From Neophaeotheca triangularis (lineage: Eukaryota): 64,000 nt of DNA. The DNA lies in the NCBI GenBank assembly GCA_054600435.1, contig BAAIJX010000011.1, positions 248,001 to 312,000 on the forward strand. Reading direction: 5' to 3'. Below the pieces are notes generated by a model. It saw only the letters and a program-made list of their open reading frames with translations, did not search any database and was not told where the DNA came from. Each line of letters opens with the position of its first letter. Position 1 is the stretch's first letter. The position numbers were made by a program, and so were the translations under genes. Of this stretch, positions 23,863 through 56,008 are shown piece by piece.

Positions 23863-26800
23863 ATGTCGTCGCCGACTCAACGCCGCTCAGATCGCCCTTC
23901 CGCAAACAATACACCTCGTCGCGCCAGCCAGCGCAATTCTCAGGCTCCCCAATCAAGCCCAGCACAACAACAACAACAACAACAACAGCAAAACACAGAA
24001 GCGGACGGCGGCGCACAGCGCTCGTCTCCCGCACCAGCTCAAGACCAGACTACGCCTCGGGGCAATGCGAGATCTTCCCAAACCCAGGCTCCTCCGACTT
24101 CCTCGCCTCTTTTCTTCCGCTCTTCGCCCGCTCAATCAGAAAGCCAGAGTCAAAGCCAACAGCTAGGTGTACCCGTTGGTGCGAATGGTGCCGGTGCCAG
24201 CTCGCCGTTGAGACAGGAGGTCGGCGCTGGTCCTGGAGGGAGTAGCGAGGGCGGCCGGACGCCTAGAGCAAATGGCGGAATAGGAGGTGAGATAATGCTT
24301 GCCCTAAGCGCAGAAAGCAAGCGCTAATCTCATAATGCAGATTCTTCGCCGCTCCATTACGCTTCATCGTCAGACCCTGCTGGCCCAGCAGACCGCCTTC
24401 GCTCCGATGCCAGCAGATCGAGTGGCCTCTTTGTTCGGGGACCCGGCGGCAATGCTACAAGTTCGCGCAACAGGCGCCATGACATCCAATCTGATTTGCT
24501 AGATGGTGGAGGTGGAAGGCACAGACAGCTTCTGATCGACGAGAATGGCAATCCGGTGCCCGGCTCTGATGCACCAACGTATTCGAACCTCAATCCCGAC
24601 ACAGATGATGCCGAGCTCCTGGGTGGACAAGGAACTAGGAATGTTTTTGGTACAAATGTCAGCGTAAACGACTCCTTCAGTGCTGCTCGCGAGTGGCTTC
24701 GTGATTACCAGAGGAAATACCGACTTATGCAAGATGGCGAGCTTGCGGATGGAGAGCACTTGGAGGCAGGTCACCTTGGGCTTGAAAAGGAGAATGTCAC
24801 ACAGATGGAGAACATGCTGGATCTCGGAACAAAATGCTTCTATCTGGATTGCAGGAACCTCAAGGCTTACCCGCCTACGAAGAAGCTGTGGCATCAACTA
24901 CAAGCTTTCCCCGCCGAGATCATACCGCTCTTCGATGCGGCTGTCAAGGATGAGATTCTTGCGCTGGCCGATAAGAGAGCTGCAGGGCAACGTGCTAATG
25001 CGACACCAGCGCCGCAGTCAAGTGCTACCAACGGCAACAGGGCTGGCTCGATGAGTGATGCCCCTGCGCCGCCTAGCTCAGAGGCTGGTGCCAACATGGA
25101 TGCCCCCACCCCACGAGCTGCTCCAGTCCAGGCAGCAAACCAGGCGGCTCTGGACGAGATGGTCACAGATGCGGAGCAATCTACGTACCATGTCCGTCCG
25201 TTCGGACTAGACACCACCGTCAACCTTCGGGATCTGAACCCCAACGACATTGACAAGGTTGTTTGTATCAAAGGACTCGTCATTCGCACCACCCCCATTA
25301 TCCCAGACATGAAGGACGCCTTCTTCCGTTGCAGCGAGTGCCACCACACCATCAAAGTCGATCTTGATCGAGGTAAAATCACTGAGCCGACAAGGTGTCC
25401 CAGAGAAGCATGCCAAGCGAGCAATAGCATGCAAATTGTACACAACCGCTCAGGCTTTGCGGATAAGCAGGTCATTAAACTCCAGGAGACGCCGGACTCC
25501 GTGCCTGACGGGCAGACACCTCACTCGGTGTCACTTTGCGCTTACGACGAGTTAGTCGATGTTTGCAAGGCAGGTGACAGAGTAGAGATCACGGGCATCT
25601 TCAAAGCAAGCCAAGTCCGGATCAACCCACGTCAACGCACCGTTAAGAATGTTTTCAAGACTTACGTCGACTGCCTGCACATTCAGAAAGTCGACAAGCG
25701 TCGTATGGGCATTGATCCGTCCACTATCGAAGAGGAGCTTTCCGCTGAGGCTGCTGGTAACGTGGAAGAGACGCGAAAAGTCAGCGAAGAAGAGGAGGAG
25801 CGTATCCGCGCTACAGCAGCCAGGCCGGACGTCTACGATCTGCTTTCTCGCTCTCTAGCTCCAAGCATCTGGGAGATCGATGACGTGAAGAAGGGTATCC
25901 TGCTCCAACTCTTTGGTGGTACCAACAAATCGTTCGAAAAGGGTGGCAGTCCAAAATACAGAGGCGACATCAACGTCTTGCTCTGCGGTGACCCGTCGAC
26001 AGCTAAATCCAAGATGCTTGAGTACGTACACAAGATTGCTCCCCGTGGCGTCTACACTTCCGGCAAGGGTAGTAGTGCCGTCGGTCTTACAGCCTACGTT
26101 ACCCGCGATCCCGAGACTCGCAGCCTGGTCCTCGAGTCCGGTGCTCTTGTGCTCTCGGACGGTGGTGTCTGCTGTATCGATGAATTCGACAAGATGTCCG
26201 ATTCCACCCGCTCCGTGCTTCACGAAGTCATGGAGCAGCAGACCGTGTCCATTGCCAAAGCGGGTATCATCACTACGCTGAATGCACGAACCTCCATCTT
26301 GGCAAGCGCCAACCCTATTGGAAGCAAGTACAACCCGAATCTCCCAGTTCCACAGAACATCGACCTCCCCCCTACCTTGCTCTCGCGTTTCGATTTGGTC
26401 TACCTCGTCCTGGACCGCATAGACGAGAGCGCAGACCGCAAACTCGCAAGGCATTTAGTGGGCATGTACCTCGAAGACTCTCCCGAAAACGCCAATAAAG
26501 ACGAGATCCTCGTAAGTCTCCTGCATCTACCTTCCTTGCATCCTATTCAGACAGTATGCACTAACACCTCTTTTCTAGCCCATCGAATTCCTGACATCCT
26601 ACATCTCCTACGCCCGCGCAAACATCTCCCCTCAAATATCTCAATCCGCCGCCGACGCCCTCGTCAAAGCCTACGTCTCGATGCGCAAGCTGGGCGAGGA
26701 CATTCGCGCCTCCGAACGCCGCATCACAGCCACCACCAGACAACTCGAAAGCATGGTCCGTCTGTCGGAAGCCCACGCAAAAATGCGCCTAAGCGAAACC

Positions 26801-27166
26801 GTCACCGAAGACGACGTCAACGAAGCCGTACGCCTGATCCAGTCGGCTTTGAAACAAGCCGCCACGGATGCTCGCACGGGGTTGATCGATATGGGGCTCT
26901 TGACCGAAGGCACTTCCGCTGGTGAGAGGAAACGTAAGGAAGATCTGAAGTCTGGGATTTTGAATCTGGTGGATGAGATGTTGAGGGGTGGTGCGGCGAG
27001 TGCGAGGTATGGCGATGTTGTTAGGGGGCTTGGAGAGAGGAGCGGGGTTAGTGTTGAGGGACAGGAGTTTGCTGAGGCGGTCAGGGGGTTGGAGGCTGAG
27101 GGTAAGGTGCAGGTTGTGGGTGAGGGGGTGAGAAGGAGTATTAGGAGGGTCACTGGGGTGGCTTGA
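23863..27166 (+). CDS. MCM4: DNA replication licensing factor MCM4 (Cdc54), 3 exons
   Basis: Ser/Pro-rich N-tail with polyQ from (CAA)n, zinc finger CSEC...CPREAC, KLQETPD, Walker A GDPSTAKS, IDEFDKM, LSRFD, TTRQLESMVRLSEAHAKM. Introns about 24288-24340 and 26512-26578. Confidence 0.97.
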
Positions 27167-28264: not shown

Positions 28265-31200
28265 CTACACAGCATCATCTGCGTTTTGCATACCGCGGCG
28301 CGCCATTTCCCAGCCGTTGGCGACGTTGATATTGTCACTCATGCTCGAGCCACCATCAGTGTGCGCGGTTGATGAGCGAGGCGACGTGCCTCTGGTGTCA
28401 GGAACCGAGACGTGGTTTTGCTGCGGGATTATGACAGTCGGAGAGTTAGGTCGGACGGTTGGTATTGATGTCTCTAGCTCCTCGTCGCTCTCGATGGCGC
28501 TGTCGGTAGAGGTGTCGCTCAGACTATCTTCGACCAAATCAGGGAAGCCTTTCGTGCCAATCGATGCGCTCATGCCCGTAGGTCTTAAAGGTTCCGTCTC
28601 CGTGGCATAATTAGCATTGGCAACCTCGCTGTCGACTTCTGAAACGGCGGCTTGAGGGCTCGGGCGAACAACATGCGCGCTCTTGAGCCACGACTCTCTG
28701 AGTGACTGGCCCAACGCAAAAGCGACACGCCTGTCAACACTGTTCCCAACAATGATCACTTGTTGGGCCGGAGTGCCAACGATGACTTCGTGGTTGAGGA
28801 AACCTTGAGCCCGTCTCAATTCCAGCACTGTACAGCAGCGATGCTGTTCCCAGTGGACTAGCTGGCCTCCGTGCGCACAGGCGACTCGCATAGCGGTTGT
28901 GACAGTGGGGAAAAGCCCCCCTGAATAAAGACGACTGTAGCTTTTGCTGCTTGTTGGATTTTGCTGCAATTTACTGAGAAAATTGTATCTGTTCTTGTGC
29001 CTTCCTTGCAGCCGGCCTTCGTTGTAGGCCTGGATGTAACCCATTCCACGAGGGAACGCTGGTATGGCCGTCAAGAGCGAGCGGATCTCAAGACTCATGT
29101 TCGTAGGGATGCGATGATCGGGCGCCTTTGGGACGACGCCGACCTGACCATCTGTGACATTTGGGAGGTCTTTCAGTGCTTCTTCGATCGTGATTGGCTG
29201 GTAAGGGGTATAAAAATTCTGCCTGATCCCAAAGGATAACCCATTGCTTGACTGTCCCAAGCTGTGGGCAAGCTTGTGATCCGGACGCGAATGAGTATGA
29301 GGAGGTGGCAGCAGCGGCTCGACACCCGGTGCTGTTGCCACGATGAAGATGCGGCTCCGGGATTGGCAGCTCCCGTAACTCCAACTGTCCATCAGAAATT
29401 GCTGGACTTGGTAGCCAAGACCGACCAAAGCAGCGATGATCGCGGAGAACACATTTTCGTCTTTGCCGGCACCCATGCCACCAGCGAGACGGGTCACATT
29501 CTCCAGTAAAAGATATTTTGGTGAGTACAGGTCTACGAACGCAACGACCGAGGCCACCATAGATGCGTTGCGTAGAGAGGAGTCTGACATCCTGTTGCTT
29601 TGCAATTGACTGAACCCAGGACATGGCGAGCCCGCCGATATGACCTCGATGCCAATTGCAGCTGCTTTCGGTGAGCCGCGCATCGCTAGGAGCAAGTAGT
29701 CGTTCACGGAGCCCAGAAAGAAGTTAACCTCCGAAGTATCATCCACATTAGCTCGATACGAGTGTAGAGCGTTCGTTGCCCAGTCTACGGTATGCTTGAA
29801 CTTCACCGCACCACCTTCCTCTAATCCTCGATCAAAGTTGCCACCGCCGCAGAAGATCCCTAGTCCGACCAGAGGCTTAGTTTGAGGTGGAGATGCTGGG
29901 TCTAAAGCCTGCTTGAGAAGTGGAGATGAGTCCGATACCTGATCAGGGGTGTCGACAATGTACCAGTAGTCACCAGAGCCTTGCCGATCGTAAGGACAGC
30001 AAACAGCTTCTGAAGACGGAAAAACCCTGATGTGGGAAGCCCGAATGACTGAACTCGAGTCAATGTCGACCTTGTCGTCGTCGGTGCCAAAGACAAGCTC
30101 ATTAGGGGCCGCACAGGGATCGCGTGTGCGCTTTCGGAGGAATGGCTGGACAATCACCCTTCGCTTTGGCTCGTCGTAGTCGCATATTTTAGCCGGCTCT
30201 AGATGTCCATCACGCAAATATAGTACTGCATCTCCTGGTTTGTGCCTGGAAAAGCACTCCTCGAAAGCCGTCAAGGTGTTTACGCAAGCGCAGGCAAAGT
30301 CTGAATCTTTCAAAGAGACAAAGTCGTATGTGTCATCTTCGTGAACAGTCCTAAATCTCTGGCGAACAAAAAGTACAGAGCCATTGCTGGGATCTGTCAC
30401 ACGCCATTCAACTTCCACTTTGCTGGTCACTTGCGCAGGGTCCAAGGCGTCGGAACCGCAAGAGCAGTTATCTGACAGGAACAGCTCGTTTTCGTACAAG
30501 TAGTTTGCTTTCCCGATGGTGGTATCAGACGGCTCATACATCCAAAGGACATCCAGTCTGCGGTCTTTCCCATCGTCTTGGACTGCCTGAACATAGGCAT
30601 ACCATTGTTTCGCGGAGCTCTTACGCCATCGGCCACTGTTGTCAGCAGGCAGGCAAATTACATCGCCTTGCCGTACCTGATCCGCTGGTATCGTATCCGG
30701 TCGAGCGATCACCTCCCATGATTTTCGCGCCAATTCCCTAGTAGATGTCTTGAATGGCGTGAGCCCTAGAGCTCTTTTTCGCTTTTGAACCTCTTGTAGG
30801 ACCTTGTCGCTTCGAGGTGCCGATGCTCTGAGGTGCTTTGCGAAATACATCCTTTTAAAGCATTCGAAAACATACGGTGTCACTACAGTCTTCTGCGCGA
30901 CTTCCCCATGCTCGGGTATTGCCTTCTTCGCTGCGTAGGGGTCAACTTCGCTCCAGACGGGCTGCGACATGAGGTCGCGGTCGTTCAAACTGTAGCACTC
31001 GCCAAATAAGAAGCCAACGTTTGCTGTCACCGTGGTACGGAAGTCTGTCAAGTTTGCCTTGTCCAACCAAGACTTCAAAGCAGGAGCGTTCGTATCTTCA
31101 CTCGCACTCAAAAGCCAACGGTAGAAACTCTTGCGGAAGTGGTGAATAGTGACGTCCGAGACATTCCAAAGGTATGCGATGAAGAATCTGGCGAATTGCG

Positions 31201-32089
31201 CGAGCCACTTGAAAGGCGAGTAGAATCGACGATATTCAGGTGCAGGAGACCCAAGACGATACCAAAAGCGACTGTCTTTGGTTTCATTTGATTGGAGACA
31301 TATGCTTTGAGCCAGGTCGGATGCGTCGACGTCTCCATAGCCATCAATAGACAGGACACTGAATGGTACGCCTTGCACAAACGCCTTCTTTTCGTCAAAA
31401 GACACCACTCCGTCGAATAGTAAAGTATCAATTCCGGATCGGTAGGACCGCAGTTTGTCGAGCGAGCATAGCTCGAGTGAGTGACGTGAAGGATGCTGAC
31501 CCGCGTCGCTCGTAGGACCAGTGGCGAAGGGTCTGTACACCGCAAACTGGTCGAGCTCCAGGTACGTATACTCCTCGCTCTTGGAAGCACGTGTTGCGTT
31601 CAAGATATTTCGTTCCGAAGATCTCTTTGAGGGAGGATGCCAGCCTATGTGTGCTGAACGGGCGATGTCGGGGCCCGGAACATAGACATGGCTCAGGTGT
31701 ACGGTCGAGCTCGGTCGTCCCGGAGAGTTCTCATTTTCGCTCAGTCTTGCTGCATCCTCTGGCCGTGGCCCTACGTTGGCTTTGAGCTCCTCACTCGAGT
31801 TGGGTGTACCCGCGTTGCCGTATCCATTTGACCAGGTAACCACCGATCTGTCCCTCTTCACCACGACCTGATCACCGCTAAGGGAGGGAGGAACAGGAAT
31901 ATCTACACGCTGCTCCCTCTCTAGTATCCGCTTCGATGGGAAGCGTTTCCTCTTGCCCCTCCCACTATCCATCTCATGTTCGTCCACGGCACTCGAGTGA
32001 CCCACATCTTCAATCACCTTTTGCCCGATCCATCGCTGTCCATTGCCGCTCAAAAAATCCTGGAAAGTCCGCTTTAGGGAGAAAGACAT
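28265..32089 (-). CDS. dim-2: DNA (cytosine-5)-methyltransferase DIM-2 (BAH domains plus C5-MTase), intact single ORF
   Basis: WYRLGSPAPEYRRFY, BAH NELFLSDNCSC, motif I FCGGGNFDRGLEEGG, IV GSPCPGFS, VI LLENV, VIII QSRSRIF, IX RRAQGF, X VGNSV. Start at 32089 or 32131. Confidence 0.9.
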   Translation of the reverse strand: MSFSLKRTFQDFLSGNGQRWIGQKVIEDVGHSSAVDEHEMDSGRGKRKRFPSKRILEREQRVDIPVPPSLSGDQVVVKRDRSVVTWSNGYGNAGTPNSSEELKANVGPRPEDAARLSENENSPGRPSSTVHLSHVYVPGPDIARSAHIGWHPPSKRSSERNILNATRASKSEEYTYLELDQFAVYRPFATGPTSDAGQHPSRHSLELCSLDKLRSYRSGIDTLLFDGVVSFDEKKAFVQGVPFSVLSIDGYGDVDASDLAQSICLQSNETKDSRFWYRLGSPAPEYRRFYSPFKWLAQFARFFIAYLWNVSDVTIHHFRKSFYRWLLSASEDTNAPALKSWLDKANLTDFRTTVTANVGFLFGECYSLNDRDLMSQPVWSEVDPYAAKKAIPEHGEVAQKTVVTPYVFECFKRMYFAKHLRASAPRSDKVLQEVQKRKRALGLTPFKTSTRELARKSWEVIARPDTIPADQVRQGDVICLPADNSGRWRKSSAKQWYAYVQAVQDDGKDRRLDVLWMYEPSDTTIGKANYLYENELFLSDNCSCGSDALDPAQVTSKVEVEWRVTDPSNGSVLFVRQRFRTVHEDDTYDFVSLKDSDFACACVNTLTAFEECFSRHKPGDAVLYLRDGHLEPAKICDYDEPKRRVIVQPFLRKRTRDPCAAPNELVFGTDDDKVDIDSSSVIRASHIRVFPSSEAVCCPYDRQGSGDYWYIVDTPDQVSDSSPLLKQALDPASPPQTKPLVGLGIFCGGGNFDRGLEEGGAVKFKHTVDWATNALHSYRANVDDTSEVNFFLGSVNDYLLLAMRGSPKAAAIGIEVISAGSPCPGFSQLQSNRMSDSSLRNASMVASVVAFVDLYSPKYLLLENVTRLAGGMGAGKDENVFSAIIAALVGLGYQVQQFLMDSWSYGSCQSRSRIFIVATAPGVEPLLPPPHTHSRPDHKLAHSLGQSSNGLSFGIRQNFYTPYQPITIEEALKDLPNVTDGQVGVVPKAPDHRIPTNMSLEIRSLLTAIPAFPRGMGYIQAYNEGRLQGRHKNRYNFLSKLQQNPTSSKSYSRLYSGGLFPTVTTAMRVACAHGGQLVHWEQHRCCTVLELRRAQGFLNHEVIVGTPAQQVIIVGNSVDRRVAFALGQSLRESWLKSAHVVRPSPQAAVSEVDSEVANANYATETEPLRPTGMSASIGTKGFPDLVEDSLSDTSTDSAIESDEELETSIPTVRPNSPTVIIPQQNHVSVPDTRGTSPRSSTAHTDGGSSMSDNINVANGWEMARRGMQNADDAV

Positions 32090-32326
32090 CGTTCGAATGC
32101 TGAGTATCCCGATAATTGTGCGATCGCTCATGCGGCGTGCTGCTGCTTGAGGGCGTGGTTGAAGGCGTAAGGGTGTTAGAGCCAAATCACGCCGGAAGCA
32201 AGAATAAACAGAGGACAGGAGGAGTATTCCTCCAAGTGAACTCGAGCCATTTCGCAAGGCAATGAAGTAAAGAGAAGCGAAGAATGTCGGTGCGTTGGTT
32301 AGATATGCAGGAACCTACCGCCTTGC

Positions 32327-32994
32327 CAGACTTGTCATCAATCAAATCAAGTCAAGACGGTAGGTAAATTGGTCTTGACTTGATAGGTCTATAGAGGTAG
32401 GTGAATTGATTTTGACTTGACAAGTCAAGTCAGTCAGTGAATTGATTTTAATTGTTAAGGCTTAATACCTGCTGGCATCACCGCATTAGGAAGGTGCTCT
32501 TAGGTGCGCATAGCGGCATAGTAGCTCTTAGGTACGTATAGTCGCTCGGAGGTGCGCATGGTGGCTCGGAAGTGCGTATAGTAGCTCTTAGATTCATATT
32601 AGTCGAATACTAAGGTGAATAGGTATAGTAGTAAAATGGTCCTATATAGCGCGACGCGGAGGTATATGCGGAGGTGTGTGTAAACCGCCCAAGGTTAGCC
32701 CGGCGGATCTCCGGTGAAATAGGAAACTAATAAGATAGCTACGATAAGCTCTAATAAGTAGGGTCAGAGTTTGGTTTGCAAACTAGCAACATTCACTTAT
32801 AAACATATTAGTCACATGACCCTCTATTATAACCCTATCAAGCCTTGACAAGGCTTGTTAATCAAGCCACCCCTTAATTTGATCTTGGTGGGTCTACGGT
32901 TTGATCAAATTGATCTTGATTTGATGCCAAGTTCAAGTCAAAACAGTAGGTGAATTGATTTTGACTTGATTCGGCTTGATTGATGACAAGTCTG
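32327..32994. mobile_element. Non-autonomous hAT-type DNA transposon (MITE), 668 bp
   Basis: Perfect 19-bp TIRs CAGACTTGTCATCAATCAA (32327-32345) and TTGATTGATGACAAGTCTG (32976-32994). Identical 8-bp TSD CGCCTTGC at 32319-32326 and 32995-33002. No ORF. Confidence 0.93.
32496..32603. repeat. Degenerate 20-bp tandem repeat inside the MITE
   Basis: Units start at 32496, 32524, 32544, 32564 and 32584 (consensus GCTCKKAGGTGCGCATAGTN). Confidence 0.8.
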
Positions 32995-33411
32995 CGCCTT
33001 GCTAGATGCACCTCCTACTGTCTTCAGTATTGTCGCGTGAGCCGGACATTCTTCCATCGTTTAGATAACCAAAGCCGCCTGAATCTCTCGCTGCACATCT
33101 CTATGATTGGCAAAGGCGTGAGTATTAATACCATATGGTGGTTGCGATGAAGCGGACGAGTGTTCATAACGCCAACCGACTGGCTTCAGGTCACGTGCGT
33201 TCGGAAGCAACTAAGTGCAACAGAAAAGGAGACCGACATTCTTTGATGTAGGTCAGAGGCAGTGTATAGCGCCTGATTTCATTGCTCTCGGTCCCTCTTA
33301 TTCTATCTGGATATCTTTCCATACCGAACAGGCGACATTTGAACAGCGCCTCGCTCCCTCAAAACACATCGCATTAAAGCCCGTAGTGAACTCCGCTTCC
33401 CTTCGCACAGC

Positions 33412-35190
33412 CTACCACCCGTTCGTACCCTTGCCATCGACCATCTGCTGCTTCATTGCCGCTTCCGTCTCAGCACTCATCTCGGCACTATTCTGGCCCT
33501 GATCAGGCATTCTCGCCAGCCACGCCGGCGGCTGCATGCCCGTCTGGTCCTGGATTGTCGACAGCAAAGGCGGCAAGCTCTGGAAGAGGTTGCGGATCGG
33601 CGCCGCAGAATCAGCGCCACCACCCTCTTGATTTCCAGTGTTCCAGACATTGATCTTTGGGTTAAGGCCATTGATAGCCTTTGCGTTGGCATTGGCGAGC
33701 CTTTCATAGGTGTTGTTCTGCAGCATCAGGTATTGCATCAAGCCTTGCGGACCGCCGAGGACTTCTGCCAGAGCTCCATAGGCCTTCGCCATCTCCGTGA
33801 GACCTTGGGCCTCCTTTTGCTGGGTGATGAAGTTGGCTTCGGCTTCGCGGGTGCGCATGAGGTAGTTGGCCTCGGCCTCCTTCTCTTTGGCCATGAGGTT
33901 TGCGTCGGCTTCTTTCTCGCGGCGGTAGAATTGCGCTTCGGCCTCGGCGCGTTGTTCGTATTGCTCGCCATCTGCACGCTTAGTGTGCGTGTAGAGGTCG
34001 GCATCAGCCTTTTCTTGTGCCGATTCCCTCGAGATCTTAGCTTGGGTTACTGTGCTGGCACGAAGACGTTCCAGTTCCATGAGCGCGCGGCTGGCTTCGA
34101 CTCCCTTTTGCAATTCTGCGTCCCTGGCTTCAGCGGCACGTGTGGCTTCGAGTTGCTGAATGTTGAGGTCTCGCGCGATCTCGATTTCGCGGTTCTTGAG
34201 AATCTGGTCTGCGTTGGCTCTACGTGATCATCAGCATACCATGATGGATTGGGAAAGGCGGAAGAATGGGAAGGCTTACTTCTCGACCTTGCGCTCGGTT
34301 TCTAGGACTGCTACATGAGCGTTGATCTTAGCAATGGCCTGCTTCGTCTCGCCGTCTTTCTCCGCTTCTCCGACACGTCCTTTCGCTCTGCAAGATTGTT
34401 AGCACCTCAGAACCATGTGCGACAACATCAGACATACCTTGCGCTGGCCACATCGATCTGTGCTTGGGATTGAGCGCCTTCATGTGCCTTCCTGCTCAGA
34501 CTTTCGAAGTACTTCGACTCTCCCATATCCTGGAGCTCTTTCACGTTAGCATTGTAAATGCGAAGACCCTGTCCATTGAATTAGCCCCGAACCTCTAAGA
34601 TAAAAAGAGGTTCAAATTAGCTCACAAACTGGTCGAGCTCCTTTTGCACGCATTCGATGACCTGCGCTTTGAACAATCGGCGGTTGTTGAAAAGCTCCTC
34701 CATCGTCATGTTGGAGACTATGCTACGAGTCTCGCCTTCGATGATGCCTTTGACAATGTCTTGGACATGGTTGCGGCCGGTGCCAACAACGCGAGAGTTG
34801 GAGCCATCGCTGCCGCCTGTGAGAAGAGTCGCATATTTGATCAAGCTCTCCATGGAATCGTGCGGGCCGATTGTAAAGACTGCCGGGAGCGCGAATTGCA
34901 GCTTCTCCGAGGTCATGGCCTGGAGACTAAGGCTGAAGTCACTGTCGTAGTTGTCAGATCTGGTCCAATCCAGAACGAGAGGGAATCGCGAGAGATGCTT
35001 ACAACGGCGAGATTGAGAGGTGCGTGACCTTCTGCAGCGGCAGGATGAAGCATTTCTTGCATATCTTGACGGAATCGATACCCGCGCCTGGAAATTGTTA
35101 GCGCTGTATCTGCCCAGTTTTCACATTACCTCGAGTTGACTTGCCTGTGACGGCCAGGTAGCTGTTGGGCTCGGAGACGTGATACCACAT
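33412..35190 (-). CDS. Flotillin / SPFH (band 7) domain protein, multi-exon
   Basis: MWYHVSEPNSYLAVTG|AGIDSV, QAMTSEKLQFALPAVFTIGP, VKGIIEGETRSIVSNMTMEELF, ELDQF|GLRIYNANVKELQD, EA-rich coiled coil, LMQYLML...PKINVWNTG...LPPLLSTIQDQTGM. Confidence 0.9.
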
Positions 35191-52802: not shown

Positions 52803-55391
52803 CTTGTTGTTGTTCGAGGTGGAGTTGATATTGCAGGATAGATGTCGAGATGGACTGCAGGAAGGATTCGTAAAAGAGGTGATCGGAGGGACGGAAATCT
52901 GTGGTGAGTTTGGAGGGATTGTCGATGTAGAGGGCGTGGATGAAGTCCATTTTGAAGGCCGATGGTCGTTGTAACGTTTAGCAGGTCCAGAGAAGACGGG
53001 AAGGCGTGGTGTCGGATTAGTGAAGAAGGTGAGAAGGTGTAGGGAAGAAGGCGAGAAGGTGCTGCTTCAGAAGAGGGCAGCAAGTACAGTAGGTACAGTA
53101 GGTACAGTAGGTAGTACTTTAGTTGATTGATGCCTGAGGGAAGGTGAGCCTGATGGAAGGATGCCCCGTCGTTGTTGTATGTGAAACTGTAATGAAATTG
53201 GGAAGTGGCTACGAGGAGTATTGCCAACCTTTGAACGACAAGGCATGCATAGGTGGGTGAAGGGATCAGGCCTGAGTTATATGTACATTGGATGTACCCG
53301 GCGTACTCAGACCCAACAACACATTACTGTATATATCCGATATATATAGACGAAATAGACATATGCATGGATGTGTTACTGAGCCTTGCCATTTGTTTGG
53401 ACCAATCGGCGCAAGCGTCTTCGCGAACGATGATCCGCCGTGAAGAAGAATTAGGAATTACCTTAAGCATCTGGTTGGCCCTGCCCAAGGCCTCCCGTTG
53501 GTCATACTCTTAGCAGTAGTGTCCACCTTACTACCTCACTATATCCGCAACGGCTAACTTGACGTTACTGTAGGCACAGTAGGTTCTACAGTAGTGGGGA
53601 ACCAGTAGAGATCTGAGGCAGGGTCCAACATTCATTCCATTGTGCCTCGGCCTCGCTTGTCGTTTAAATCAAATCAAATCAATCGAATCGGTGAATGCAA
53701 CCAAGTGTCAACAGTCGGCTTGTAATCCACATCATCTTGATTCTGTAGCAAGCACGCCAAGCGACGAGGATGATCTGCTTGCGGGCTATAGACGAGGCGC
53801 CGATCGCTTCTAGGCCATGTACGCGGTATGGGCTGTGTGAATACGTACATAGAAGAGAGAAAAGATGAGGCTTGGAAAGGCCAGTGTGACCTCAGACCTA
53901 TCATCACCGACCGGCGCCAAATGTCGGCGACTTAGCGTACTGTAGGTAAGATATTAGTTGGTTGGCGGGGGGCGGTAGACTTGGTATGCGGGTGAACGGT
54001 AGCAGTGGGTAGCGGGTAGTGGGTAGAGGTAGCGGGAAGTAGTGGCAGTGCTCGTGGCAGTGGCAGTGGCATCGGCATGTAGTCACTTAGGGTCCATCAG
54101 ATAAACAATAATAATAATACAAGTAGTCGGGTACCACTATTGTCAAGCAGTTTAGTCTTGCTGCCTTGCATAGACGAGCCTGTGCTGTTGTCGGTAGCGA
54201 GCGCTATCGACCCTTACCATTGGCCAAGTCGTGCGTCGAAAGTGAGCTCGGGATGCTGTGGCTGTCCAGTGCCCGCCCGACGAACACTCGAAGCGACATG
54301 ACTACACTATACATACTGTAGGTACATAACTTAGTAGGGATCCATGTGTGTGTACGGGCTACGTAGGTAAGGTGGTATACTGCAAGCGATGCCGCCGATG
54401 GGTGCTCGCCGCAATGCCGTAGAACCGAGTGCTTAATAAGTAGTGTAGTATTCTTGCCATTGATGGGAGGGTCACGGTGATTGAACGCAACGTTGCCAAG
54501 CGAGCCGAACCCGTACCGCAGTGACCCTCCCTGCCTGCTAGGTACTAGTACTACCTTACCCAATCGCTGGTGCTACTCGATATGAGGCAGGGTTCACGGT
54601 TCATGAGAAGACAGTACCGGTAAAGACTAATTCCAAAAGGATAGGTAGTCTTTTGTTCTACGTTGCTTCGACAAAACGCAATGATCTGCAAGTAGCTAGC
54701 TGCAACGTCTGCTAAGCGAGCTCGCTTAGAAGACTGCGTAGAAGTGAGGTAGGTACATAGTAGGTAGGTAGTAGTTTGTTGGTTTTCTTGTTTCCGATCC
54801 GATCCTCCGCACTCGCTACAGTACTCGAGAAATATACACATTTTACAATTATATCATGTGTCACAGGCAATCTCGTTGCCGAGCGAGCCTAGCGCGTAGG
54901 ATGGTAGCGAAGAGTGCACATGCAACACGTAAGCGACGAGGGCTAGTTATAAGAGCGAGCTCGTTTGTCGGAAAGAAACCGTCGTTTAGAGTTCCCACTC
55001 ATGGCAAGCAACTCCTAGCGAGTGTCGAGTTCTGTCACGTCTCGACGACTCACGTGGTCTAGAGCATGTAGACAGTAAGTACCCCACGATCAAAAATCTT
55101 TTCATATCGTCTCGAAGCCGTCGCTACAGCGGTTCATCCCCCGAAGACGGTTGAGGGGAAGAGGGTATGAAGATGCAGTCAGTAGTAGTATGTACTAGTA
55201 GGTACTTGTAGGTAGGTAGGGTAGTATCATGACTGATTACTCATTATCTTCACACTAAGTAAGGTTCTCTCTCCTCTGTTCGTACCGACCAAGAAGAAAA
55301 AAGTTCCCCAAACAAGATGATAAGGAGAGGCCGGGACAAATAAAGTCTCGCTAAGAACGTTCAGTCGCGCATGTTTGAATTCGACTCCATC

Positions 55392-55393
55392 TA

Positions 55394-55418
<25 letters not shown>
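55392..55418. repeat. (TAG)9 microsatellite
   Basis: Read directly. Confidence 0.9.
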
Positions 55419-55429
<11 letters not shown>

Positions 55430-56008
55430 CTGTCGCGTTGTTGTTTCTGTTGTCGTTGACATCTAAACGATCCGAATTTTGATCATGATAACCAGCTTGG
55501 AGTGCCCAGTGGATGTGTCTAGGTGTGGCTTTCTTGACTCGACTCGACTTTCGGAAGGCGCCACTTCCGAGTCCAGCCAGGTACCGGGTACCACACAATG
55601 ACGGCCACTACTACCTACTACTCCACCACGGGCCTACCCTACCTAAGGTACATGGTAGATATGTATGCATCGACGAAGAATACACACGTTTTCCATCTTT
55701 TGGAAATCATCTTGAACTTGGTTTGATCGATCCGCCTTGACCGAGTCGTGATTGCTCTTGTTTCAGATCGACCTTCACCTCAATCTGGAACGCACGGCAT
55801 CTCGCCTCCATTTCGCCACAAATCCATCGTTACATTGTTGAAAAAACACTCTGTGCCCTTGTGATTGGAACCTGACCTCGTCTTGGACCCTTCATTATCC
55901 ATGTCAAGAACTCAACACAAACAGATTGAATAGAGACAGACGTCCTCAAGTCTACTGGTAACACGTCCAGGAACTCCACGGGCTCCCAAACACTCACCCA
56001 ACCCAGCA

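Follow-up and report, generated by a model that had tools for sequence, protein, structure and literature searches.

A polymorphic and probably young transposon insertion, putatively a hAT-like MITE, upstream of a fungal DIM-2-type DNA methyltransferase gene

What does it mean when a transposon is found directly upstream of a gene for an enzyme that methylates transposons? This question is raised by a stretch of 64,000 nucleotides from Neophaeotheca triangularis (contig BAAIJX010000011.1, positions 248,001 to 312,000), here called the window, in which a 668-bp element lies between a flotillin-like gene and the gene of a DIM-2-type DNA (cytosine-5) methyltransferase, dim-2, of a dothideomycete-related fungus. 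The original prediction saw in this arrangement a candidate for a methylation-sensing feedback element. We propose instead, with a probability of roughly two in three, that the element is a recent, still polymorphic insertion of a hAT-like miniature inverted-repeat transposable element (MITE), and that the resulting polymorphism is young and either near-neutral or mildly cis-acting. As it stands, this is an ordinary event, the arrival of a small DNA transposon in a promoter, which is a known habit of fungal MITEs. The element and its parts are listed below with their terminal inverted repeats (TIRs), target-site duplication (TSD) and open reading frames (ORFs); X1 and X2 are public sequencing runs.

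32327 to 32994, no strand: non-autonomous DNA transposon, putatively a hAT-like MITE, 668 bp, with TIRs and TSD, short ORFs only, precisely missing in run X2
32327 to 32356, plus strand: left TIR, its first 19 nt the perfect complement of the right end; a contig of run X1 stops exactly at 32356
32965 to 32994, minus strand: right TIR; a contig of run X1 starts exactly at 32965
32319 to 32326, no strand: TSD copy 1, CGCCTTGC, a direct repeat, present as a single copy in the empty site of X2
32995 to 33002, no strand: TSD copy 2, CGCCTTGC, a direct repeat
32347 to 32457, no strand: left subterminal repeats from the repeat search, units of about 37 nt built on TCAAGTCAA / AATTGATTTTGACTTGA, with small palindromes
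32518 to 32587, no strand: internal tandem repeat with a 20-bp unit in 3.5 copies, Tandem Repeats Finder (TRF) score 84

The two TIR arms found in the repeat search are 30 nt long each and 87% complementary, with a perfect match over the outer 19 nt, and both copies of the 8-bp TSD are identical and directly flank the element. When the 19-nt terminus was searched with up to three mismatches, only two sites were found in the 64-kb window, namely the two ends of the element in opposite orientation, and the control with dinucleotide-preserving shuffles gave a mean of 0.00 matches (0 of 100 shuffles with any). A second copy of the element within the window was not found with blastn. The ORFs of at least 30 aa that start with ATG and touch the element number three, with 55, 39 and 39 aa; a single 39-aa frame is fully contained in it, while the other 39-aa frame and the 55-aa frame exit past its right end. 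Over positions 31900-33500 there was no Rfam match at E ≤ 1. Folded as single-stranded DNA, the element reaches −111.9 kcal/mol compared with −67.3 ± 4.1 kcal/mol in 20 shuffles (z = −11), which is expected for a MITE-like inverted-repeat element. Its GC content of 41.8%, against 54.2% for the window, makes it only moderately AT-rich. A fourth unit of the subterminal repeats is located near the right end at 32933-32970, and these reiterated units are candidate transposase-binding sites. The element combines the features by which MITEs are recognized: 668 bp in length, non-coding, bounded by TIRs and a TSD, and present in several copies.

The direct evidence for an insertion comes from public runs that were searched with positions 31000-34500 of the window; four runs were compared, all as contigs. 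The share of sampled words was 0.93 in X1 and 0.60 in X2, which carry one organism label, and small in three other runs. In X2, a contig of 3921 nt with a depth of 99.6 joins position 32318 to 32995 and skips 32319-32994 (676 nt). At the joint, 8 letters fit either side, so that CGCCTTGC is present once. The flanks of this empty site differ from the window at 21 of 2700 positions (12/1319, 2/218 and 7/1163; ~0.8%), which identifies X2 as another strain or a very close sister. The insertion is a real transposition event and not a chance symmetry and, because the empty site in X2 is clean, it is polymorphic and probably young. The flank contigs of X1 show 0 differences from the window and end precisely where the TIRs end on the inside (32356 and 32965), in the way that assembly graphs break at repeats; X1 is possibly the window's own source and was not counted as an independent occupied allele. 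Such an allele is present at the right junction in X5, a polyA metatranscriptome labelled aquatic from another study, where a 253-nt contig (32959-33211, 0 differences, depth 2.2) bridges the junction with 36 nt inside and 217 nt outside the element. An explanation without any mobile element, in which chance inverted repeats or an assembly artefact simulate one, is refuted: none of the 100 shuffles matches the terminus, both 8-bp copies agree in every letter, X2 lacks the element precisely, and the same termini recur in independent contigs, both at other loci and in another study. The empty site of X2 and the independent contigs rule it out. The predicted 668-bp element bounded by TIRs and a TSD is therefore borne out by its 30-nt TIRs, its perfect 8-bp TSD, the shuffle control and the empty allele.

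Three further observations on these runs can be added. A second contig of X5 (32367-32474, 10 differences) comes from another, diverged copy, and if the X5 contigs are RNA, both family copies and this spacer are transcribed. Pieces of run X3, whose kind was only guessed as RNA, are identical to the window at 31829-31997 (dim-2) and 32513-32705 (element). The pieces of X3 and X5 were not used as evidence for transcription, since their depth is 2-3, the strand is not readable from contigs and DNA carry-over is possible. Run X6, from the same study and with the same organism label as X1 and X2, contained next to none of the sampled words of the 3.5-kb stretch (share 0.00), so this label may cover lineages that are more than a few percent apart.

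The element does not stand alone. Three records in X1 (4, 5 and 6, with contigs of 319, 7856 and 13,995 nt) and three in X2 (9, 10 and 11) match parts of it with 5-33 differences and then continue into unlike sequence, with loose ends at 32994, 32968, 32333 and elsewhere. These partial matches with unrelated flanks make the element a member of a small repeat family, copies of which occur at other loci in X1 and also in X2, whose dim-2 site is empty. At least three further family contigs were found per sample; contigs do not give a true copy number, and a family size of a few loci per sample is a rough estimate. The summed contig depth of 183-542 over the element, compared with 129-130 in the X1 flanks, hints at a few copies and is not itself a copy number. 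Deletion derivatives in X2 were considered and rejected, because the joint 32467>32760, next to a lack of cover over 32521-32754, has just 28 letters on its shorter side and is too weak.

The differences among the copies have a direction. All 32 difference places in X1 lie within the element, as the X1 flank contigs have none, and with the window copy as reference, 24 of them read C>T or G>A and 7 the opposite way. The copy at dim-2 is thus the one with fewer mutations, as a young insertion should be. Among the 40 of 86 variant sites that were listed, 21 fall in the element and 20 of these are transitions; 15 of the 20 exchange CpA/TpG with TpA, where the CpA/TpG share of the element's C+G would predict 29.7% (binomial p = 3.8e-5, an indication only, as the subset is selected and its members are not independent). 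In hAT families of dothideomycetes a CA<->TA bias among copies is a mark of repeat-induced point mutation (RIP) (PMC6710886), and CpA>TpA is also the signature of the Dim2-dependent mutator in Zymoseptoria tritici (PMC8016269). The family was thus probably seen by RIP or by mutation linked to 5-methylcytosine (5mC). The composition of the window copy itself is not RIP-like, with a TpA/ApT index of 1.07, a (CpA+TpG)/(ApC+GpT) index of 1.08 and a composite index of −0.008.

A stretch of about 2 kb elsewhere in the window (53751-55750) does have RIP-like composition, with a composite index of 0.47-1.2, TpA/ApT up to 1.91 and a GC content of 45-53%, unlike the remaining window, where composite indices are negative. 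It holds short broken frames only; no Pfam family was assigned at E ≤ 0.1 to the 7 ORFs searched, and no long repeats were seen in it. Possibly the stretch, a neighbour of a cytochrome P450 gene (55934-57901), is a relic of mutation by RIP, and if it is one, RIP has acted in this genome.

To which superfamily could the element belong? Since no autonomous partner came to light and no transposase was found among the large ORFs scanned in the window (18 of 31), the assignment as hAT-like was made by TSD and TIR size, and in these respects the element resembles known ascomycete transposons. Dothideomycete hAT elements have TIRs of 18-20 bp and TSDs of 8 bp (PMC6710886), and the combination of an 8-bp TSD with short TIRs is shared with hAT elements and MITEs such as EFT-11m of Epichloe festucae and the histone-H3-carrying hAT elements of Pseudocercospora fijiensis and Cercospora zeae-maydis (PMC6710886). 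The CA<->TA bias attributed to RIP is likewise shared with dothideomycete hAT copies (PMC6710886). Ascomycete hAT MITEs are also small non-coding derivatives found near the 5' ends of genes (PMC3227409), and the 500 bp upstream of ORFs are enriched in fungal MITEs, among them a hAT family with an 8-bp TSD (PMC3227409). In contrast to a typical MITE, however, 668 bp is at the large end and the family is apparently small; the likeness to the named families is one of TSD and TIR description. Metagenome matches to the 19-nt terminus were rejected as chance, because the 4 loci matched over 19-30 nt each, one lay in an apparent coding region and none had a second inverted terminus.

The consequences of the insertion depend on what surrounds it. 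The neighbouring features are the following.

28265 to 32089, minus strand: DIM-2-type DNA (cytosine-5) methyltransferase gene, a single ORF of 1274 aa, from Pfam, homologues and alignment
32090 to 32326, minus strand: 237-nt stretch between the element and the dim-2 ATG, from sequence reading, probable core promoter and 5' leader
32995 to 33411, minus strand: 3' region of the flotillin-like gene and any upstream control sequence of dim-2, 417 nt from the stop codon to the insertion site
33412 to 35120, minus strand: flotillin-like (SPFH/Band 7) gene with at least 2 exons, from Band_7, weak PDB and Atlas matches

The methyltransferase frame on the minus strand is open from 32257 to the stop codon at 28265, and the ATG at 32089 yields an uninterrupted protein of 1274 aa that is identical to one already on record (P0002). 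Pfam assigns DNA_methylase (PF00145, E 7.7e-29, residues 745-1130) and DUF7893 (E 3e-23) to it, whereas BAH (PF01426, residues 505-561) stays below threshold with E 0.017 and 15.5 bits against a cutoff of 30.8; most homologues bear PF01426. Up to E ≤ 1 these three were the only Pfam families, so that the replication-focus domain of DNMT1 and the SNF2 and RING domains of Dnmt5 were not found, and the product is longer than the RID class. The nearest Atlas clusters are ascomycete proteins with DNA_methylase, DUF7893 and BAH, and clusters with DNMT1-RFD rank below them. The best relatives, 40-47% identical and with the same domain set, come from dothideomycetes of the Mycosphaerellales/Capnodiales type (Zasmidium, Hortaea, Dothistroma, Fulvia and Zymoseptoria brevis). 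The Z. brevis protein (P0048, 1281 aa) has the same domains and 40% identity at 91% coverage, and this species is described to have one dim2 in addition to dnmt5 and rid (PMC8016269). In Dim2 of Z. tritici, two BAH domains (aa 494-601 and 637-748) and a catalytic domain (694-1171) are described (PMC8016269), and the sub-threshold BAH match at 505-561 falls where the first of these two lies. Given this same layout, we accept the gene as DIM-2-type, a class drawn from homologues and domain layout. An alignment of dim-2 with eight relatives (nine sequences) shows that the invariant catalytic columns of motifs I, IV, VI, IX and X are all kept (FCGGG 746-750, SPC 821-823, ENV 863-865, RRAQG 1092-1096 and GNSV 1115-1118), and the intact ORF with all catalytic motifs that had been predicted is indeed present.

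Between the element and the ATG at 32089 we count 237 nt (32090-32326), within one base of the 238 bp proposed earlier, and 195 nt to an in-frame upstream ATG at 32131. The whole spacer from ATG 32089 to the stop codon of the flotillin-like gene (33412) measures 1322 nt, of which the element takes 668 nt or 50.5%, in agreement with the earlier statement that it fills about half of the gap. The 237-nt stretch contains two short pyrimidine tracts (32277-32269 and 32224-32217), and we infer that the core promoter and leader lie in it and survived the insertion. The remaining 417 nt of the original spacer, in which a TATTAA occurs at 33130, now lie 676 nt further from dim-2. Were transcription to start within the element or upstream of it, 10 more ATGs would enter the leader, and poor translation would be expected.

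Other start codons lie close by. Use of the ATG at 32131, which precedes the annotated start by 42 nt, would lengthen the protein by 14 residues, and an out-of-frame ATG at 32250 opens an upstream ORF of 24 codons that closes before 32131; depending on the transcription start, either could matter for the translation of dim-2. The choice between 32089 and 32131 is not settled by homology, because the N-terminal ~100 residues do not align among the relatives. Between X2 and the window, codons 1-363 of dim-2 contain 9 differences among those listed, 2 synonymous and 7 residue-changing, with two in codon 84; these counts are lower bounds, as 46 further differences exist beyond those listed. Together with the failed alignment, these changes indicate that the N-terminal region of dim-2 evolves fast.

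The course of events that we propose is as follows. A transposase encoded elsewhere would have recognized the 19-30-nt TIRs and the reiterated subterminal motifs, mobilizing the element in trans; it would have excised the element from its previous site and reinserted it in open promoter DNA, thereby duplicating the 8 bp CGCCTTGC. The 237 nt of native sequence with the pyrimidine tracts would have been kept before the dim-2 ATG, and the other 417 nt would have been displaced by 676 nt. Most likely this would be without consequence or would change dim-2 transcription modestly in cis. As MITEs are enriched upstream of ORFs, a copy in the dim-2 spacer needs no special explanation, and its location is probably a by-product of their preference for the 5' sides of genes; we do not read it as a methylation sensor shaped by evolution.

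The main rival to a near-neutral insertion is a cis-regulatory lesion that cuts dim-2 off from an activating sequence or gives it repressive chromatin. This would lead to less or differently timed DIM-2, lower 5mC and a changed mutation rate of repeats, and it would be a milder parallel to the dim2 presence/absence polymorphism of Z. tritici. The position 237 nt from the ATG, the displacement of 417 nt of native upstream DNA by 676 nt and the existence of natural occupied and empty alleles are all compatible with such a lesion. Populations of Z. tritici are polymorphic for functional and non-functional dim2, with an effect on 5mC and on C>T mutation at CpA sites (PMC8016269), and insertions of transposable elements (TEs) that change expression are on record for fungal promoters (PMC7174668, PMC3599309). 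However, the proximal 237 nt with the pyrimidine tracts are intact and may contain the whole core promoter, and the dim-2 ORF is without decay, which says little for so young an insertion. On balance we regard such a lesion as unlikely.

The comparison with known systems is instructive here. Both at our locus and in Z. tritici, species of the same broad fungal group, there is within-species variation at the dim2 locus that arises through repeat biology. In Z. tritici, however, dim2 itself was amplified and destroyed by RIP, while here the coding sequence is intact and the upstream spacer alone is altered (PMC8016269). With the inserts in the MFS1 promoter of Z. tritici and the mimp MITEs in effector promoters of Fusarium, our insertion shares that a polymorphic TE lies a few hundred nt upstream of a start (PMC7174668, PMC3599309). 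In contrast to the MFS1 and mimp cases, which have a link to expression or phenotype, the dim-2 insertion is known from sequence alone.

Several points weigh against the reading as a recent, near-neutral or mildly cis-acting hAT-like insertion. The assignment to hAT comes from TSD length and TIR size, and no transposase was found among the scanned large ORFs of the window (18 of 31). The terminus CAGAC fits 4 of 5 positions of the hAT consensus YARNG, and CGCCTTGC, with G at positions 2 and 7, does not fit the weak target preference of hAT elements, nTnnnnAn. In principle the empty site need not be ancestral and could have arisen when the element was excised without leaving a footprint. Near-neutrality is an assumption. 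Expression is often altered by insertions as close to a start codon as this one (237 nt). Finally, the site beside a gene for the methylation of repeats and the RIP-like spectrum of the family (15 of the 20 listed transitions) keep a functional link possible.

The most far-reaching functional link would be methylation-sensing negative feedback, in which DIM-2 methylates the MITE at its own gene start and thereby lowers dim-2 transcription to a set point. The geometry for this is right, since TE-derived sequence lies upstream of a gene of the methylation pathway, and a rheostat of this kind is established for ROS1 in Arabidopsis (PMC4380477). In Z. tritici, 5mC is located on TEs and in the non-coding DNA next to them (PMC8016269). 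Negative feedback would need no more than the normal silencing of a promoter TE by the very enzyme under its control, without the unusual step by which methylation activates ROS1 (PMC4380477). The RIP-like differences of the family, mainly CpA/TpG to TpA in the selected subset described above, also lean mildly towards the premise of feedback. The window copy, however, with its 41.8% GC and composite RIP index of −0.008, is far from the AT-rich relics that recruit H3K9me3 in Neurospora. There, H3K9me3 and HP1 reportedly act upstream of DIM-2 and recruit it, not the reverse (Tamaru and Selker 2001; Honda and Selker 2008). With heterochromatin upstream of DIM-2, silencing of the element need not report the activity or dosage of the enzyme, unless 5mC itself adds to silencing. 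Furthermore, the insertion is polymorphic and young, as the empty site in X2 demonstrates, and not a stable, shared part of the promoter. In Z. tritici, ordinary genes were found to have no promoter methylation (PMC8016269), and no precedent for a fungal methylation-sensing promoter element was encountered in literature searches that covered titles and the openings of abstracts, which is weak evidence of absence.

The analogy with the ROS1 promoter transposon and its methylation monitoring sequence, in which TE-derived sequence also lies directly upstream of a gene of the methylation machinery, makes a loop conceivable (PMC4380477). Yet ROS1 is a demethylase activated by methylation of a fixed promoter element (PMC4380477), while we are dealing with a methyltransferase and a presence/absence polymorphism. 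Taken together, the composition and distribution of the element lean mildly against an evolved sensor, and we consider a feedback loop very improbable. RNA-directed DNA methylation, which targets the ROS1 element, is not known to occur in these fungi. In its full form the idea would be that the MITE, scarred by RIP or by Dim2-linked mutation, is methylated by DIM-2 and damps dim-2, that strains with the occupied allele keep a self-limiting set point of methylation, and that the polymorphism translates into heritable differences in genome-wide 5mC and in the mutation rate of repeats; to this scenario, too, we give only a very slim chance.

A different possibility is that the insertion acts on the flotillin-like gene and not on dim-2. 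It might extend, truncate or destabilize the 3' untranslated region of this gene, or it might alter termination with read-through towards dim-2. The identity of the neighbour is suggested by a Band_7 match (E 1.8e-10 on 34617-35120), by weak PDB matches to chains of human flotillin-1/2 (E 0.047-0.9) and by the last exon (33412-34227), for which 29 of 30 Atlas hits fall within the Flot set; a PDB search with the C-terminal ORF gave nothing at E ≤ 0.01. The original prediction of a flotillin gene upstream of dim-2 was right as to the neighbour and its place, but needs correction in orientation: the gene is on the same (minus) strand, and its 3' end, not its promoter, faces dim-2. The stop codon is 417 nt away from the element, and the X5 contig at 32959-33211, which comes from a polyA metatranscriptome, lies 201-453 nt past this stop codon and enters the right TIR with 0 differences. 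However, contigs show neither strand nor RNA origin, the bridging contig has a depth of 2.2, and X5 has a depth of 0 over the flotillin coding bins, which proves nothing. An effect on the flotillin-like gene therefore appears decidedly doubtful to us.

The value of the recent MITE insertion that we favour is practical. An occupied and a clean empty allele under one organism label, with flanks less than 1% diverged, represent a natural experiment that asks whether a transposon can modulate the machinery by which transposons are marked, and that makes the feedback idea testable. If the output of dim-2 differs between the alleles, TE activity, the level of 5mC and the Dim2-dependent mutation rate known from Zymoseptoria would be connected, the presence of Dim2 in Z. 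tritici being described to change 5mC on TEs as well as CpA>TpA mutation (PMC8016269). If there is no difference, the locus would be a cautionary example of how a suggestive neighbourhood of a TE and a silencing gene can follow from the general promoter preference of MITEs. Should feedback turn out to be true, it would be the first fungal counterpart of the ROS1 rheostat of plants, caught at its origin.

The wider surroundings of the locus can be described briefly. Window positions 1-64000 are gene-dense housekeeping DNA, and dim-2 lies in an ordinary, euchromatin-like context. Among its genes are those for an acyl-CoA dehydrogenase, a pyridoxal-phosphate (PLP) enzyme, an oxoprolinase, a ThiF/rhodanese protein, Elongin A, THOC7 and a Yippee/Mis18 protein, as well as a Mago-binding protein, a UBR1-type ligase, a MIT-domain protein, a P450, a kinase, a proteasome subunit and a Kelch protein. 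The gene of an MCM protein (24328-26925) is arranged tail-to-tail with dim-2.

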